Program-made: the position numbers and the translations under genes
Shown: one piece after another, positions 52,772 through 64,000 of the stretch
How positions within the stretch are numbered: the stretch's first letter is position 1
Layout: the number at the start of each line of letters is the position of its first letter
Origin: Paecilomyces variotii
Taxonomy: Eukaryota
Assembly: GCA_004022145.1 (NCBI GenBank)
Contig: RCNU01000002.1
DNA: 64,000 nt
Strand: one strand, 5' to 3'
Notes under the pieces: model-generated
Told to the model about the DNA's origin: nothing
The model's input: only the letters and a program-made list of their open reading frames with translations
Databases searched by the model: none

Positions 52772-55700
52772 ATGGACTCCGACGATCGATCTCCGGCTGC
52801 TGGAGCTGTCGCACAATCAGCCCATATACCAATATCAGAGCTTTCTCCGGAGCGTGAAGATATAAGTACTAAGTCTGTGCATGCTGTGGTGACACTGGTC
52901 TGGCCATACTCGTCTTCAAGCCAGTCCCTTAGCCTTCTGCTCGCCGAGCCAGATTTTCGTCTTCGACGTTCCCAGGGCCAAGTGAAGGTCAACTTTCATG
53001 GTACAAGCGCGCAGGAAGTTGCCCAGACTCATGTGGGCATTGGTGACGAAGTCCACCTCTCCCTGAAAGGGGTCAGATGGACGGACACCCAGGGACCGTT
53101 AGCGACGCCGGGCAGAAATGTCAGCTGGGATATCAACTTCGAGAACCATGTAACACTTGAGGTACGCTGTCACTCGATAACACGTTATTTGATTTATGGG
53201 CTAAAAGATGATGCAGATCTCGAGAGACTCCCGACCTCTAGCCTCAGTGCAAGTTGATAGGCCAGCATCTCCGCCGCAGAATGATGGTTTCGCAACGCCA
53301 GCGAAACCTCCAGCTATGAATCTACACACGGAGCTGGAAGGTCCGTCTGTGGGATCGGCTCAATGGGCGTCACCAGCTTTTCTACGATCAAACCGCCAGT
53401 CTCTGGGTAGCGTTATCGGCCCTGCATTTGATCCCTTCGCGGAGGAAGATGGCTACGTACCGGGAAAAGGAAGGAAGAGACCCAGGTTCAGCATGCGCAG
53501 TAATGAATGGCGACTTGTTGATGAGCCTGCAAGTCCGGTCAAAGAGGAGACTCCCTGGGGTGAAATGGAAGACATGGATATGCAAGATGATGAGCTAGAA
53601 GCTGAGCTGGCAGTGGAAGAAACCGCCAGCAATCTGAATGGAGCAGGAACACATTCACCGAAACATATAGACGCAAAAGACGTTGCAGCTGAGCCTATGG
53701 TGACCGAAGAGTCTTTATCTGAAACTGCCGCCGGGCTCGCAGCAAGTGACAAAGCTCTCGCGCAAGATCGAAGTATCCAACGACCTCAAGATGCTGTGGA
53801 GGTGGTACGCAAAGATCCTCAGCTAGAGTTTACACCTCCAGTGGTGGCTTCGCAACGCACCAGCCGTGCTCCTACGGATACACCGCGTCTTCTGCCGCTT
53901 CTTTCCCCAGGACTTCTCGTCCCCTCGCCACTGGTAACAGTCTCTCCAAGTCCACAAGGTTACTTTCCGACGGTGGTTGAGTCTACTACATCTAGTGAAC
54001 CTCCAGTGGTTTCCGTGGGTTCTGGCGATCATGAAGCGACAATCCAGAACGGCCCCTTACAGGAAGCTCCTTCGCAGGATCTATTGCAAGAGGCTACCGC
54101 ACGAGTCCTAGAACATGCTGCTGCCGATGCCGTTGATGCTTCTATGGAGGCGAATAAACCTTCATCATCTGAAACAATAGCTGGTATCAGTACCCAAGTT
54201 CCTCATTCTCCTCCTGTGGGCGAGTCCGACGTCTTGATAGAATCATCAAACTTCCAGGTTGTCGAAGAAGGAGTACTTGAGAATACAGGTGAGATCGCAG
54301 GGGTAGTTGAGGAAGCAGCTGAAATTGATGAGGCGCGGTCGTTATCTGAGTCCGTTGAGACAGAGTCTGGCGGCTTCGACGAGGATGATGAAAATATCAG
54401 AGAAACCCGGCATGAGGATAGAGAAGCTCAGTTAGGGGATGGAGAAGGTGTCGATGAGCATGAAGAATACGAATCTACGGAACACGAGGAAGGATATTCC
54501 AATAGATCTCGAAATTACTCAAGGTCACCTCCTGTTCCTATTGAAGAGGAATCTGAAAGTGAAAGCGAGATAAGTGAGGAAGAAACAGAAGCGGAATTCG
54601 AATATGTTAAACGAGAATATGTTAAACCCAGCAACCGGGAGAGCCCTGAAGAGAGACTACATGATACGGCTTCTTATGTCGCTGAAGACGAGTACGATGA
54701 CGCGGAAGAAGATGAGGAACAATCTGAGGAACAATCTGAGGAAGAATTCGACGAGGAATACGAGTCCGTTCATGTCTACGAGGACGAATCTGAGGAATCA
54801 CTAGGTTCTGAAGCCGACTCGGAAGATGCGCCTTCGACAAGACCGCAAGCGCCAGCTCCGGAAAGGACTGTACATCCGGAAATTATCGTTCTAGATAGCG
54901 ACAGTGAAGAGGAGTCCGGTGTGGCTGGAAACCATTCCGTAGTCCCACCGGAAGATCAGAGAGATGTCCTCGTGAAAGCGACTGCAACAAGGGATCAGAA
55001 TGAGCTGTCGGTCTTGCGTACTGTACATGCTGAGGGCTCAGAAGAAATCCAGGACAACGAAGAAGGCATTAGATACTCTGAAACCGAGGAGTCGCAAGAT
55101 AGCGAGCATTCTGAGACTTCGGCTGCTCCCGGATCCCCCGCTACTGGTGAAGATGTATCAGACAGCTTCCAGGAGGAGAGCGAAGAGGAAGTCCATCAAG
55201 AAGTTCAGGAAGAAACCCATCAATATTTCCATCGGGAAATTCAGGAAGAGGCCCGGGAAGAGGCCCGGGAAGAGAACCTGTCACCATCAGAAGAATCGCA
55301 CGGGTCCGTGAGCTATCCTTTCTTTACACCCGAGACCGACCTGCAGCAGCCGATATCAGACGAGCACAGTGAAAGTGCTATAGATCCTGAGTTACTCCGA
55401 TCACAACAAATACCACCGACGAGTGCAATAAACGACAATAACAAAGATGCTCATGAGCAAAAGGATGAGGCCCTGCTGTATGATCGAAGTTCTAATCTAA
55501 GTCGATCCCGTGATCAGGGTCTTTTCCTTGACGGACCAAATTCTCCTCAGCACAGCGGTCAAGTCGAAAGAGGCCAGCACCAATATATCGAACTTCACGG
55601 TCAATTACCTACCCCTAATGCTACGCAACAGATGGATCCCGTGTCTCCAGAACCGGATGATCACATCGCTAGGCCAGAGTTTATGCCCACTCCACGAAAT

Positions 55701-56795
55701 ACTCAAGATCCCTTTACCGAACAGTTACAAGAAGACCAGCCAACTCTCCCAGACACTGCGTCACCAGCGCACATTGAGATAGTGTCCACGGATTTTAATG
55801 GTCAGAAAGAAGAAAATATTCCGGGTGGCATAGTGCAACATGTGTCTCGACATGTGTCTAGCAGAAAATACACAGCCACCGTACCTGTCGAAGACAAGCC
55901 GCTGGCCGCAGACGACACAGGTCTGGACCGCGAAGAGCAGCCAGAAGTTCAACAGAGCATTGAAAGTAATACAGATGTCGTTGATCGCCGTCCCGTGCAA
56001 GTGAGCGTGGAAATCAGTCCTGCTGCGAGTCCGCCGAATCCCCCCGCTCTTCCAGATCGTAAAGCAAGGGGCTTTCGCAGCGCACATTCTTACTTCGCTC
56101 CGCTGGCGACGTTGTTCGACCTTTTCAATTCCGTGATCGATACAATCTCAGTCGTTGTTGAGACGTCAGCTGTGTCCCGTTCCGCGTCTGGTCCCCGGGA
56201 TTACTTTCTGACTCTGCAGCTTACAGACCCGTCAATGGCGGGTACTATACTTCCCGCACAAATATTTCGCCCTTACAAGACGGTCCTGCCAGCTGTGAAA
56301 GAAGGAGACGTGATCCTGCTACGTAACTTCAAGGTCCGGACTTTCAATCATTCAATGATGCTGCTCAGCACAGACACCAGTGCGTGGGCTGTCTTCGACG
56401 GCGAGATGGACGAAGCTCGCGTGGCTGGTCCGCCAGTGGAATACGGCCTGGCTGAACGCTCTTACGCAGACAGTCTACGCGAATGGTTCCGCGAAGATGG
56501 CGCTGCTATGGTTGCGGACTACAGGCTCCAGTTGTCCATCGACAGAGCTAGCAGAGGGGACACGCCTTCCAGCAGCGCTGCCATCAGCGATACCGGCAGC
56601 ATTGACTCGGGCTTGCGTGAATCACGCGGTGACTCGCTTTTCTCACACCGCGGGTCCAGACGCAACAGAAAAGGTAACCGGCGAATCACTATCCATGAAC
56701 TGAGAGACGGGACGCGATATACAGAGGTTGGATCGCCCTCTGATAAGGAGAGCATTCACGAATTAAGAGACGGCACAGTCTACGCGAATCTTTGA
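52772..56795 (+). CDS. Protein with an N-terminal OB fold, a long acidic linker and a C-terminal POT1/Cdc13-type (Telo_bind-like) OB fold; intron about 53162-53217
   Basis: N-terminal HAVVTLVWPYSSS...GQVKVNFHG...GIGDEVHLSL; C-terminal IDTISVV...GPRDYFLTLQLTDPS...AQIFRPYKTVLPAVKEGDVILLRNFKV, which resembles POT1 OB1. Confidence 0.78.
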
Positions 56796-57970: not shown

Positions 57971-59186
57971 ATGGATAACGCAAACCTGTGGACGCGGAGA
58001 GCAAAGTAAGACCATCTGACAGCCTTTTTCCTGTAGTCTCAGGACCTGTGTCAGGCCCGTGCTGACCGCGATCATAGCTCCAGCAAGCTGTCTCTGTCCA
58101 TGTCCGGGACTGACAGAGACGGTGGCGCCCGAGTCGATCTTCCCCGCAATCACACAGCGAAGCGCTTCGGTCCCGACAGCTCTCATGGACGGTCGAATCC
58201 CTTCAATGCGATATCTCCTCTCTCCGCGGGCGCGTCCTCCCCGTCGATAAACGCCTCGTCCGCTTTCGGCCTGGGGTCTGGCGCATTCGCGTCGTTCGGT
58301 TCTTCAGCCAAGACTCCGAAGACGCCCTCCGGCGGTGCCTTCGATCTCAGCTCGAAGACTTCTGGTGATAAGAAGGATACGCATGAGACGGAAGGCACGG
58401 GGACGGACACAGTGAAAGCGAAAGGCTCGACGTCCTCACTCAGCACATCCGCTTCCACCATCAAGACACACCCTCTCAAGTCGACGTGGATTGTCTGGTA
58501 CCGTCCACCCACACCGAAATACTCAGACTATGAGAAGTCAACAATCGCACTGGCATCCATTTCCACGGTTGAAGGCTTCTGGAGTGTCTATTCCCACCTG
58601 AAGAGACCATCTCTCCTCCCGACTGTTTCCGACTACCACATCTTCAAGAAGGGTATCCGTCCCGTCTGGGAAGATGAGGCCAACAAGAAGGGTGGGAAGT
58701 GGATCGTCAGATTGAAGAAGGGAGTTGCTGACCGGTACTGGGAGGACCTTCTGCTGGCCATGGTGGGCGACCAGTTCGCGGAAGCTGGAGATGAGGTCTG
58801 CGGTGCCGTTCTTAGCGTGCGGAGCGGAGAGGACGTGTTGAGTGTCTGGACGAGGATCGACGGTGGAAGGAACATCAAGATCAGGTAAGTCTGGACTTGT
58901 CATCAACAATAGCTACATATATGGCCCTTGCTAACCGACGTATAGGGAGACGATCAAGCGATTGCTCGCCTTCCCGCCAGACACCAACATCGTTTGGAAA
59001 AGCCACGATGACAGCATTGCTCAGCGATCTGCTATCGACCAAGCTCGTCAAGAGAAGGCTGCTGCCAACGCTGGTCATCATCACCACCACGGGGGTGACC
59101 GGCGGAGGGCTAATAATGCCAACCACAACAACAGCAACAGCCATGATGACACAACGGGTGACAAGGGGAAAGGTTCGGCGTCTTGA
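57971..59186 (+). CDS. Class II eIF4E (4EHP/eIF4E2-like cap-binding protein), 3 exons (introns about 58006-58076 and 58885-58945)
   Basis: Micro-exon MDNANLWTRRA; core HPLKSTWIVWY, STVEGFWSVYSHL, DYHIFKKGIRPVWED, GGKW, YWEDLLLAMVGDQF. Tyr (SDYE) replaces the first cap-stacking Trp, as in class II. Confidence 0.9.
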
Positions 59187-60557
59187 AAAAGGGTTAAACT
59201 GAGCCTTGGTATGGCCCTGTATAGTAAAGGTTAACTGGCATGCGTTCTTCACTGGGTTGGGGGAAGGCTTGGGCGAATTCCTGCGTCTGCTTTAGTTTTA
59301 ATGCAAGATGACATGAAAGGACCAGCATCTCGATGCTATGTAGTCTACCATTGGTATCACGATTGCTTCTACATTGGGGGGTTTTACGGGTGATGGGGAC
59401 AATGGCACTTCTCATGAATTCCTACGATATCTATTTCCGTTCCTTCTTCTTCGTTGTAAGATAGCACCATCGCAACAGCCCTTCTCTGGGGAGATCACGG
59501 ATTTTCTCACTTTGAGATTTGTCCACAGTACCCCTTCTTCTAGTTGTTGACTCGAGAATCATGCTCTGCGGCGTTGACTACTTTTCTTCCACCAGCAACA
59601 ACATGCGTCAGTATCATCAGTGCGTCCGTCAGCGAGTCAGCTTTGCCTTCTACGTGGAAAACATCACTATGCTCTTTGAACCCTCTTTGTGTACGCCACG
59701 CGAATATGCGGATCGATGTTGTCTGGTGTTATTCTCCCAAGGACATGGTGCTCCCAATTATACTGGTGGATGATTTGCAAGGTGACAAGTTGAGAATGAT
59801 AGCAATTGCACCGAACACCCTTCGTGTTCGTCATCAATGTTGCAAATCAGAAAAGCGTCGACAATCTACCTAGCGGCTTAGGGCCAGTTGTTTGCCCAAT
59901 GAGCCACCAATGGAGCCGGCGAAGCTATGTAGATGCGCCGTATGCTACCTTCCAAACCAAAAATTGTAGATTCTAGGTATATAGTAGGTTCTGTGCTATT
60001 TGGAGAAGGATAATCGTTATTGTAATTTTCTTATCCTGCGTGTCGGCATATGTACTTACTTTCCCTGCTTAAGAGATACAAATTATACACTCCGATTTTA
60101 CCATTAAGCAGTTTTGAAAGGAGGGGGGTTATGATAGCTTGTCATCTTAGTGCTGGTTAAGCACTTGCAGGAAGATGATATATACTATATTTAATGCTCG
60201 GCTGCTTTACGCTACATACTACGTAATACTGTCGAATGTCTCTTCGCTGCCCTGTGCCAGAACTGTAGATATATCGGTTTAACTCTCAATAGGTGCACCA
60301 CTCTCACTTAATATTGTCGAATTATATCCCGGCACACTCAGGAATACTGAAACAAGAAGCTAAAATTAGAATAAAGAGGAATGACGGTGAGTATAGAATA
60401 CATTGCTGGTTTTATATTTACAAGGAACTGAACTTAAGGACCTCGGGACACTCTCCGCAACTGAGTATTGCTTATCAACTACAGCATCATGCCACCCCCT
60501 TTGCTGCGACATTATCCTACTTCAGCTTGCAATGTCCCTATCATGGGGTATAGAACC

Positions 60558-60587
60558 AAAAAAAATTAACAAAAAGAAAAAAAAAAA
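60558..60587 (-). terminator. Oligo(dT) RNA polymerase III terminator of the tRNA gene
   Basis: Long T runs on the minus strand beginning 5-6 nt after G73. Confidence 0.85.
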
Positions 60588-60592
60588 GATGT

Positions 60593-60730
60593 CGACAGAA
60601 CTGGGATTCGAACCCAGGCGGGCGAACCCACAGGCTTACTATTTGGGGTGTTAGTTGGAAATTCGAGTTACGGTGTCTTTGTAAAGGCTACTTACGCAGG
60701 CCTGCACCTTAACCACTCGGTCATCCTGTC
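60593..60730 (-). tRNA. trnS(GCU): tRNA-Ser(GCU), 81 nt mature, interrupted by a 57-nt intron at 60695-60639
   Basis: Acceptor stem GACAGGA/TTCTGTC, discriminator G73, A-box TGACCGAGTGG, D stem ACC/GGT, anticodon stem CAGGC/GCCTG, long variable arm TGGGTTCGCCC, T arm CTGGG-TTCGAAT-CCCAG. Removing the GT...AG segment gives loop CT-GCT-AA. Confidence 0.9.
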
Positions 60731-61478
60731 AAGGTGATGGAAGATTTTCCATTTTGGCGTTTCTTAAATTTGACATCGAGACACCAACTCCTCAAACTCA
60801 CGTGATAGACACTTTTTGGTAAGCATAAACATTTAACTTAACTAAAGAGCTTCAACATAAAATCTTACTTCTGGATTTAGATCGAGTGTTTCTAGCCTGT
60901 AATAGAAACTGAAAGGCTAAATTCCGAAGGGACCAGCTCAGTGTGGGGAGTATTGTGGAGCGTGGGAAACAGCAGTATTGTATTAAGACTGATAGCTGGA
61001 GTTCTCAGGAGCGTATTGTTTGTTATTCTGGCAGGGGGATGCCGGCGGATTGCACTTTCTTCTGACAATTTCCTGACATTTTGTCAAATTTTTGCTTGCC
61101 TGATTAATGAACCTGCCTGCATGTCGTCATGAAGCTGGGGCCTATGGCTGACATTACTCCCACTCAAGAGTTTCTTCTTTAGTCGTCTTGTTCACAACCT
61201 GAATATTGTTCTTAGAATCTCCAAGCCCTGTCATTTACGGTTTCCAAAACATTCGTTCGCCCCTCCTAGATCACCGGCCTTCCATTCTCAACGTTCCTGT
61301 CATTTCCCCTTCTTTACATAGAAAGAAAAACTCGTCCTGCTCCGATCAAGCGCAGGAAAATTACCGATTATCTTCATAGATTGAGAGGCAGGCTTGACTA
61401 AGCAGAGTATGATTTACTTGGACCTGACACAGAAATGATGACTGACTCCAAGCAATAAATTCATAGGAAGAACAAGCC

Positions 61479-64000
61479 ATGTCACCTAAGTTTCCAGATC
61501 ATGAATCCTCTATCTCCATTGATATCAATGAAGGGCAAGCCTTCCAGGAAGACCAGGACAATGTCAAAAGTGATAAAGGAGACGGAGGACAGAGGTCTAA
61601 CCAAGGAGAGGAGGAGGAGGAGGATGACGACGAAGGTAATGAGCACAAGGAAGACGAGGAGCATAAAGACATGCGCGCCCAGAAAATCAAATTCACTGGA
61701 ATAACTGTACTAAACGCAAACAGTCGTGTCCCAGATGGGGACGACAATCCCGTTCCTTGGATACCTGGTGCTTCCGTGAGGGAAACTGTGTACCAAATCC
61801 GACAATTTCTGCGGACTCGCCCAATAGCCATAGTGAGAGTTATCCGAGAAAGCATAGGTTCCGGGAGGGAAGGCGATCTCGAAAAGGCACTGCCTTACTG
61901 TGGATACATCTTCACAAATGGTCCTTGGAGAAATGCACTGATAAGATTTGGGATCGACCCAAGGACTTCATTTGAATATCGCCTGTACCAAACTATCACG
62001 CTGAAAATGGAGTGTGATCCTATTATCGAATGTGGGAAGGAGGACTGTGCTGAGAAAGATGATATTGCCTTCCCTCAACTCCTCAAAGGAAGGGACAGTG
62101 ATTCTCATCTGATCAACGGAAAGAAATCCATTCCAGACGATAATACCTGGCAAATCTGTGACATAACAGATCCTCTTTTGCAGAGCATTGTAGCCACGGG
62201 ACAGCTCCGTTCCGAAGTCTCGTGGAAGGATGGATTCTTTTGGAATGGAACAATGGCTAAGCTTGAGGTCATTATGCGCGATAAGTTAATCTGTCTCAGA
62301 GATGGTAACATCCCTCTCGATGATGAATACAGGTGCCTCCTAGGTTTTCCTGAGAGATATGAATCCTCACAACGCGATCATATCAGGTATGGCCTAGAGT
62401 TTGGCCAGACCTATACTATGAAGCAAGCTTTTTTGAGAGGGAAGATATTACGCAGGGCACGCATATCTCTTTCCCGAGGATCGATGATGCAGACTCAGAA
62501 CGGCTCCCAGAACAACACTCCTGCACTCGAAAAGCCGCTGACCGAAGACCAACTACAAACAATTGATAAAATAGGAAATAAACAGTCGGCTCAGCGCCTT
62601 TATAAACGAACATTAAAGATATTTTCCAAGGAGGAGAGGTTGAATGCAATTGATTTTCTTCGAACACGGAAACACGTCAACCCCACAACTGGACAGGAGC
62701 GACCCATTTCGATCTCAAGTGCATCTGAAGTCCTCTACATCGGCGAGGGTACATTGAAACGGTGGATAAAAGAGGAAGGAAAAATCGTAGAAATGCGGCA
62801 GGGGTCGTCAAGAGCAGATGGGCCAAGGAAAGAACCCGTCAAGATAACAGACCAGTATGATTCAGGACATTATCCATTCCTCATGCTATCGCCAGAAGAA
62901 CTGCACAGCTATGAAGTCATACAACGAAATGAGTTGCACAAGGTACTGCCTACGACGGGATTCCTCTTCTGAGATAATTTACAGATATTTACTTACTATG
63001 GAATAGCTACATCCTTTTGAACATCCAGTCCCTTTCATCGGGATAGAAGGAGGCCGATCTGGGCGACTGAAAACTTTCGAGGATGCTTATAAGTATCTCG
63101 GCCAACAGACCCAGACTTTCCACATTGGACATCCACTTGAACCCTCTGAACCCTCTACAAATAACAAGATGGAAAAGCCAGTACAACTTCCAGATCCTAA
63201 TTCCACAAGTTCCTACCTGAGAGACCCAAAGTCTCAGGGGATAATCAAGAAAATGACAGCACAAGAAGTTAACTCTTGGCTTTACAGCCTTTCGCCAAAG
63301 TATGAACCCAGAACACTTTGTTCAACAGAGCGAAATCCTTTCTATCATGAGTTGACGACGTGTGTTGCCTTTATATGTCAGCAGATGATGGCTGCAAATG
63401 ATAAGGTGAGCGATGATAATACATATCTCCGCTAGATACCGATGAAGTATGTTGATTGTCTGCATAGCTCAAGTCTGCACTTCCAGTCCGGGTCGAGTTT
63501 GGTTACGACCAACCTTTCCAAGGTGCCCCCCAACAATGGGCCATTAAACTTTTGTTCACCACTGACATAGAGATCCTGCTTCCATTGGCACTATGTCTAA
63601 AGGGTTCTGTTAAAGATGAAGTCGCTCCCGACTCCCTCTATCTTCAAGGCTGGACTATAGACCATGCCTTGTTGCCTTGCACAGGGCAGAAAAGGATAAG
63701 AAAAAGGGAGAAGTCAATCAAGTACATGCAACAATTTTACGAGAACTCACAGCCTATTTTTGACAAGTTCAGGTTGAGTCCAGTACTGTATATCACAGAT
63801 GTTGATATGCTGTTTCTTAGAACGCCGGGTTGGCGGCCGCGTCGGTTTTCTGCAAGGTGGACACTATACAGTACAATCCTCCACACCAGCTACCGATTCA
63901 AGTCTCCACTAAGCCCTGTGTATGGAACATATATGGATATTGGACTAATGGTTGATAAAGTCCTTGAAAAGGGATCACAAGTTTCTTTCATAGTCCCACC
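61479..64000 (+). CDS. Chimeric protein: TFIIIC tau95 (Tfc1/Sfc1)-like DNA-binding domain + transposase-like HTH + unknown C-terminus. Exons 61479-62942, 63007-63405, 63468->64000 (runs off the window)
   Basis: FLRTRPI...LPYCGYIFTNGPWRNALIRFGIDPR...YRLYQT, WQICDITDPLLQSIV and DGFFWNGTMAKLEVIMRDK follow fungal tau95 motifs. FSKEERLNAIDF...ISISSASEVLYIGEGTLKRWIK is HTH-like. Two phase-0 GT-AG introns (64 and 62 nt) link open frames, and the last frame is open to the window edge. Confidence 0.7.

Follow-up and report, generated by a model that had tools for sequence, protein, structure and literature searches.

A candidate spliceosomal intron splits the anticodon of a multi-copy tRNA-Ser(GCU) gene in a fungus

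The serine GCU genes of yeast are an example of nuclear tRNA genes that carry canonical TSEN-type introns. According to a 2014 review of tRNA introns, nearly all introns of eukaryotic nuclear tRNA genes lie between positions 37 and 38, whereas non-canonical introns seldom occur in the nuclear genomes of eukaryotes and are for the most part regarded as pseudogenes, with the exception of nucleomorphs and Cyanidioschyzon merolae, in which the enzyme is guided by a bulge-helix-bulge (BHB) motif (PMC4090602). In Aspergillus niger, the gene Ser4 has a 23-bp intron (PMC6108506). According to a 2025 paper, the three types of intron in nuclear genes are to all appearance wholly unrelated (PMC12530127). 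A review of U6 snRNA reports an intron that the spliceosome removes from the Pol III-made U6 of Schizosaccharomyces pombe, together with unrelated introns in the U6 of other fungi (Tani and Ohshima 1989, 1991; Canzler et al. 2016, as cited in PMC5855946). In the same source, the spliceosomal introns of U1, U2, U5 and rRNA genes (Bhattacharya 2000; Takahashi 1993, 1996, cited in PMC5855946) serve, with that of U6, as a precedent for the processing of Pol III and Pol I products. A literature search for a spliceosomal intron in a tRNA gene found none, and the word stem 'spliceosom' does not occur in the 2014 tRNA intron review (PMC4090602).

Here we analyze a tRNA gene on the minus strand of a 64-kb stretch of fungal DNA, the whole of which we call the window. 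The gene and its boundaries are observed directly in the sequence, and its features are the following:

60593..60730, minus strand: tRNA-Ser(GCU) gene with intron, from position 1 to discriminator G73, 138 nt (sequence; Rfam RF00005; ARAGORN cloverleaf)
60696..60730, minus strand: 5' exon, tRNA positions 1-35, comprising the acceptor strand, A-box/D arm, 5' strand of the anticodon stem and C32 U33 G34 C35 (letters; same in the paralogue unitig of run X1)
60639..60695, minus strand: 57-nt spliceosomal-type intron between anticodon positions 35 and 36, from GTAAGT to TAG, the sole excision of five compared that gives GCU with A37
60690..60695, minus strand: 5' splice site GTAAGT (sequence; same in the variant copies of runs X1 and X14)
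60650..60655, minus strand: branch-site motif ACTAAC, with branch A at 60651, 12 nt from the intron 3' end (sequence; spared by the listed differences between copies)
60639..60641, minus strand: 3' splice site TAG, its AG being the first past the branch A (sequence)
60593..60638, minus strand: 3' exon, comprising U36 A37 A38, the 3' strand of the anticodon stem, long variable arm, T arm (B box), acceptor 3' strand and G73
60573..60588, minus strand: T run just past the gene (12 T, one C, further T), a Pol III terminator (sequence)

The encoded RNA is a class-II tRNA with a 7-bp acceptor stem, a 3-bp D stem with a serine-type D loop and a 5-bp anticodon stem, followed by a long variable arm, a T arm with a standard B-box loop, G73 and, directly after it, the 12-T run. 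Serine tRNA identity is determined by G73 and the long variable arm. The A and B boxes, cloverleaf, G73 and terminator are all intact, and the marks of a pseudogene or a tRNA-derived SINE, namely a degenerate cloverleaf or promoter, or an unrelated body and tail shared among copies, are not seen. When a 431-nt region was searched, the Rfam tRNA model RF00005 matched 60593-60730 on the minus strand with 42.9 bits (E 5.9e-08; gathering score 29), covering model positions 1-71 completely and placing a 61-nt insert into the anticodon loop. An earlier note on this DNA had assigned the gene a serine body, which is borne out by G73, the long variable arm, the 3-bp D stem and the RF00005 score of 42.9 bits; the positions and letters it gave for the gene, the insert, GTAAGT, ACTAAC and TAG all agree with the sequence. 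In a search of the whole 64-kb window at the gathering threshold, Rfam missed the gene, which is a filter effect. tRNA genes with intron-sized inserts can drop out at the Rfam speed filters. ARAGORN run without its intron option likewise reported no tRNA in the 64-kb window.

Where the insert is cut determines which amino acid the anticodon specifies. We compared five alternative 57-nt excisions, each of which leaves a 7-nt loop; they are given below as loop nucleotides from the 5' exon plus those from the 3' exon:

2 + 5: anticodon AGU
3 + 4: anticodon GGU
4 + 3, the GT..AG cut: anticodon GCU with A37
5 + 2: anticodon GCG
6 + 1, the canonical 37/38 cut: anticodon GCG with U37

Only the 4 + 3 split among the five tried fits the serine body. 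The excision at 37/38, which in a canonical TSEN-type gene yields the cognate anticodon, here leaves GCG and U37 on a serine body. ARAGORN called Thr(AGT) with a score of 108.8 when the intron was placed freely and Arg(GCG) with 107.3 when it was fixed at 37/38; once 60695-60639 had been removed in silico, it called Ser(GCT) with 118.6, the highest score of the three. These comparisons confirm the two products derived in the earlier note, GCU with A37 from the GT/AG excision and GCG with U37 from the cut at 37/38. Its expectation that scanners may miscall the gene as Arg(GCG) came true with ARAGORN fixed at 37/38, and default ARAGORN and the whole-window Rfam search miss the gene. The letters GTAAG stand at both junctions, once as the intron start and once formed by the last intron G and the four letters that open the 3' exon.

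The splice signals observed in the insert are those of a U2-type GT-AG intron: it has a 5' site of the fungal form GUAAGU/GURNGU, a branch motif of the fungal CTAAC type, an acceptor at the first AG and a length and layout like those of host introns, and its removal would restore a functional product, Ser(GCU) with A37. We searched for a strict layout, defined as GTAAGT, then ACTAAC, then the first AG 5-25 nt further on, with a total of 40-120 nt. This layout occurs twice in the window on both strands together, against a mean of 0.26 and a maximum of 2 in 50 shuffles, and one of the two matches lies exactly on the sole boundaries that give a serine anticodon. A loose pattern (GTRNGT with NCTRAY) was not enriched, with 37 occurrences against 46.9 in shuffles; the weight of the comparison therefore rests on the strict pattern only. 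The host's own mRNA introns follow a similar plan. The intron of the eIF4E gene at 58885-58945 is 61 nt long and consists of GTAAGT, GCTAAC, a further 11 nt and TAG, the same design as that of the tRNA insert, and in run X17 exactly these 61 nt are skipped by an RNA contig that comes from a relative of ~80% identity. This intron bears out the likeness in size and layout to the window's mRNA introns on which the earlier note had remarked, and the 18 other candidate introns in the window measure 48-81 nt. In a second contig, the joint at the eIF4E intron lies 6 nt further on, with 6 other letters between.

The longest T run in the insert is 3, so the intron is without a Pol III stop and can be read through by Pol III. 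Avoidance of T runs was also considered as a signature of Pol III transcription and was rejected as not distinctive, since T4 or more is found in only 5 of the 18 other candidate introns. An introner-like repeat was rejected as well: when the window was searched with the intron by blastn-short, no second copy turned up, the best match being 13 nt.

The nearest protein gene is that for eIF4E at 58100-58945 on the plus strand (Pfam IF4E, E 1.5e-52); its closest solved relatives are of the 4EHP type, and its product has a long N-terminal extension rich in Ser, Gly and Thr. Further away on the plus strand, a 1195-aa ORF at 53208-56795 encodes a C-terminal POT1/CDC13 telomeric ssDNA-binding domain (PF02765, E 7.9e-22) preceded by a very long acidic region of low complexity. 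On the other side, the product of 61479-62972 on the plus strand has a match to Tau95, a subunit of the Pol III factor TFIIIC (PF09734, E 8.6e-22), and the tRNA gene lies ~750 bp upstream of it in divergent orientation. The presence of a TFIIIC Tau95 gene beside a tRNA gene is probably a coincidence.

The gene exists in several copies, and both this multi-copy state and the pattern of conservation among the copies are observed in public sequencing runs. Of 24 runs listed, 20 contain a 5-kb stretch or part of it, and four (X1, X14, X15 and X17) were aligned to 58000-62000. Run X1 carries the same organism label as the window, and its flanks match the window fully over 2.6 kb and 1.3 kb. A single 137-nt unitig of X1 covers the whole gene; its 30-nt overlaps lead to three left and three right flanks, which means that the intron-containing gene is present at three loci or more. 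This unitig does not branch at either exon-intron junction; X1 is therefore without a copy in which the same exons surround a different insert or none. The X1 copy differs from the window by substitutions at 60662, 60666 and 60668 and by one-base deletions at 60658 and 60678, all within intron nt 18-38, and has the same exons, both splice sites, branch motif and branch-to-AG spacing. Run X14, which has another organism label, contributes three variant unitigs spanning 60627-60716, one of which matches the window fully; their shared ends include both splice sites and the branch site, and a listed insertion lies behind 60677. In the RNA library X15, a 5.9-kb contig of a third locus shows one-base deletions at 60663 and 60677. 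All 7 listed differences in X1, X14 and X15 (3 substitutions and 4 indels) fall at 60658-60678, in copies that are paralogues or close relatives only; the count is of differences listed, and further substitutions exist in the X14 and X15 copies.

That the five X1 differences spare the signal positions is not significant alone (about 0.2 by our estimate), and the chance of all 5 changes landing in the intron and not in the exons is about 0.01, again an estimate. Judged from these sequences, the pattern would fit a functional gene family in which the intron interior varies freely; gene conversion or recent duplication could mimic constraint among such close copies. X1 has identical flanks and five changes within 21 nt (60658-60678), and the window's version of the intron recurs in X14, which looks like gene conversion between paralogous tRNA copies. 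One X1 contig starts inside the tRNA gene and ends 4.8 kb on in a copy of the same orientation near 65.5 kb, outside the window. By joining two copies of the gene, this contig indicates a local duplication. Beyond the tRNA and the T run that follows it, the paralogous loci cease to resemble one another; the loose ends lie at 60572/60573, and there is no SINE-like tail. Additional scans were made of non-fungal collections and have, for that reason, no bearing on conservation: a metagenome scan for serine-type genes with C35, then non-T, and an insert of 18-78 nt returned only two bacterial tRNA-Cys loci (L001 and L002), two scans of bacterial and archaeal genome contigs returned 0 and 2 matches, the latter by chance in coding DNA (L003 and L004), and a scan of viral contigs for orthologues returned 0.

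Among the contigs of the RNA runs X15 and X17, no spliced joint of 60696 to 60638 was found, and the sole listed RNA-library contig across the gene, the 5.9-kb contig of the paralogous locus in X15, retains the intron; such contigs show presence and not absence, and tRNAs are poorly captured by libraries of this kind. The bin 60546-60679, which includes the 3' exon, is covered by very deep RNA contigs with summed depths of 4283 and 23381, possibly from the tRNAs of other organisms, and the bin with the 5' exon has almost nothing, with summed depths of 14 and 0. X15 and X17 cover neither 60010-60545 nor 60814-61483, gaps from which we draw no inference.

The codons that such a tRNA would read are in regular use. 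Three ORFs of the window contain 206 serine codons, 58 of which are AGT or AGC, and AGY encodes serines that are conserved between the eIF4E of the window and human 4EHP. To our knowledge, AGU and AGC can by standard wobble rules be read only by a tRNA with the anticodon GCU, so that the use of AGY codons, including those for the conserved eIF4E serines, calls for a GCU tRNA. The same three ORFs contain 38 CGT/CGC codons. A recoding of CGY was considered and set aside: the eIF4E alignment gives no clear test of CGY as Arg, and one CGT aligns with a Lys of human 4EHP.

On the strength of the sequence, we think it likely that this Pol III tRNA gene contains a spliceosomal intron and that the spliceosome makes the mature tRNA-Ser(GCU). 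We infer the spliceosome as the enzyme, and with it the existence of a spliced tRNA. In the proposed mechanism, Pol III would transcribe the multi-copy gene from its internal A and B boxes and terminate at the T run, giving a primary transcript interrupted between C35 and U36 by a 57-nt U2-type GT-AG intron. U1 and U6 would pair with GUAAGU and U2 with ACUAAC; a lariat would form at A60651, and the exons would be joined after UAG. In the product, the loop would read C-U-G-C-U-A-A and so present anticodon GCU with A37; this tRNA would be the only species reading AGU and AGC. There may be an even chance that every GCU gene of this fungus has a spliceosomal intron in its anticodon, in which case a Pol III transcript must pass the spliceosome before roughly a quarter of serine codons become translatable. 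Under this wider reading, the intron probably originated by reverse splicing into the exposed anticodon loop.

Two endonuclease routes have to be weighed against splicing by the spliceosome, and predicted structures of the precursor bear on both. The precursor was folded with the cloverleaf enforced, and the minimum free energy (MFE) structure, the 12 best suboptimal structures and the pair probabilities were considered. In these constrained folds the intron is predicted to be mostly unstructured. The dominant element, at 60684-60699 on the minus strand, is a 4-bp hairpin in which loop nt 32-35 pair with intron nt 5-8 around a GUAA loop, at a predicted probability of 0.61-0.63; this CUGC:GUAG hairpin (p about 0.6) would mask part of the 5' splice site, a point against removal by the spliceosome. 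Neither splice site lies in a 3-nt bulge flanked by helices in the constrained folds. If TSEN cut after 37 and before 38, where nearly all eukaryotic nuclear tRNA introns are located (PMC4090602), it would make a serine-accepting tRNA with GCG and U37 that would either misread Arg CGY codons as serine or be discarded. ARAGORN fixed at this position does accept the gene, as Arg(GCG) with 107.3, and C32 could pair with the third-last nucleotide of the 37/38-type intron beside a 3-nt bulge. This C32:G pair, the one a TSEN-type cut would use, is chemically possible, but its predicted probability in the constrained ensemble is <0.05. What a cut at 37/38 would make tells more strongly against it: a tRNA with U37 and an arginine anticodon on a serine body, which would read CGY arginine codons while accepting serine. 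Misreading the 38 CGT/CGC codons of the three ORFs would do harm, and yet no fewer than three copies have been kept intact; the presence of GTAAGT, ACTAAC and TAG on exactly the boundaries that give GCU would be left as a coincidence of order 1e-6 per position. We consider a 37/38 cut very unlikely. An endonuclease that cuts exactly at 35/36, such as a TSEN guided by structure as in nucleomorphs and Cyanidioschyzon merolae, with ligation by Trl1, would give the same correct GCU tRNA, and truly excised non-canonical introns, including some in the anticodon stem-loop, are described in those systems (PMC4090602). However, a bulge-helix-bulge cannot be drawn at the 35/36 junctions. For the four pairs that it requires, nt 30-33 against the intron 3' end give G:U, C:A, C:A and U:A, of which only two can form; the pair probabilities show no such motif, nor do the MFE structure and the 12 best suboptimal ones, and the constrained folds are predicted to lack bulged sites. 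Such a cut would also leave GTAAGT, ACTAAC and the first-AG layout unexplained, and we regard it as very unlikely. The folds, being thermodynamic predictions, make both endonuclease routes less probable.

A further explanation dispenses with any functional product of these genes. They could be dead or dying tRNA-derived repeats, for example retro-copies of a reverse-spliced tRNA, with ordinary genes elsewhere supplying the serine GCU tRNA. The lack of spliced RNA among the contigs of X15 and X17 would agree with this, and so would the view in the tRNA intron review that odd insertions in eukaryotic tRNA genes are probable pseudogenes (PMC4090602). A serine GCT gene with a 23-bp intron, whose position the table does not give, is listed for Aspergillus niger (PMC6108506, Table 1), and ordinary genes of that sort might do the decoding. 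Against decay stand the exons, which are identical between copies while the intron has 5 changes (the event estimated above at about 0.01 by chance), and the intact cloverleaf, A and B boxes, G73 and terminator. The repeated unit stops at the tRNA and T run and has no SINE-like tail, and the X1 unitig, unbranched at the exon-intron junctions, leaves no intron-free copy with the same exons in X1. On balance, dead repeats appear unlikely to be the explanation.

Should splicing by the spliceosome be correct, it would have several consequences. In textbooks and recent reviews, spliceosomal introns and tRNA introns are treated as unrelated and as served by separate machinery (PMC12530127), a division that a spliceosome-dependent tRNA would break. 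The list of Pol III and Pol I products with spliceosomal introns would become longer, and the gene would be a natural case in which to study how the spliceosome recognises a Pol III transcript that is very small, uncapped and highly folded. It would also explain why scanners could report genomes of this kind as being without a serine GCU tRNA, or with an odd Arg(GCG) tRNA on a serine body; a screen for tRNA genes in which the anticodon loop is followed by GTRNGT suggests itself. If, moreover, every GCU gene of the fungus were built in this way, eukaryotes would have a fourth way to mature their tRNAs, and the read-out of the genetic code would depend directly on pre-mRNA splicing.

Compared with known systems, the intron shares with the canonical TSEN/SEN introns, which are joined by Trl1 or RtcB, its place in the anticodon loop and a length within the eukaryotic range of 6-133 nt (PMC4090602). 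Unlike them, it lies at 35/36 and not at 37/38, so that the canonical cut gives the wrong anticodon, and in place of a favoured anticodon-intron pair and a bulged 3' site, neither of which is predicted, it has GT..AG ends and a branch site. The BHB introns of archaea, of cryptophyte and chlorarachniophyte nucleomorphs and of Cyanidioschyzon merolae are similar in lying off 37/38, including in the anticodon stem-loop, and in being mis-handled by scanners (PMC4090602), whereas the tRNA-Ser intron cannot form a BHB motif. The host of this intron, to judge by its short GTAAGT...CTAAC introns, is probably a filamentous ascomycete. The introns in the rRNA of ascomycetes and in U1, U2, U5 and U3 are, like the one proposed here, spliceosomal and located in abundant non-messenger RNAs, some of them not made by Pol II (PMC5855946, PMC5832005); their hosts are not tRNAs, however, and they interrupt no decoding element. 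Most similar in design is the intron in the U6 snRNA of Schizosaccharomyces pombe and other fungi: it is short, has GT-AG ends with canonical 5', branch and 3' sites, lies between small exons and is removed by the spliceosome from a host that is also a small, structured, non-coding Pol III RNA (PMC5855946). U6 is itself a component of the spliceosome and a tRNA is not, and the origin proposed for the U6 intron, 'reverse splicing at the active site', is not directly applicable here. The tRNA-Ser intron differs further in splitting an anticodon and, on the reading that the spliceosome removes it, in bypassing the splicing system that belongs to its own class of RNA. The type of intron is thus a known one, and it is the class of its host gene, a tRNA, that is new.
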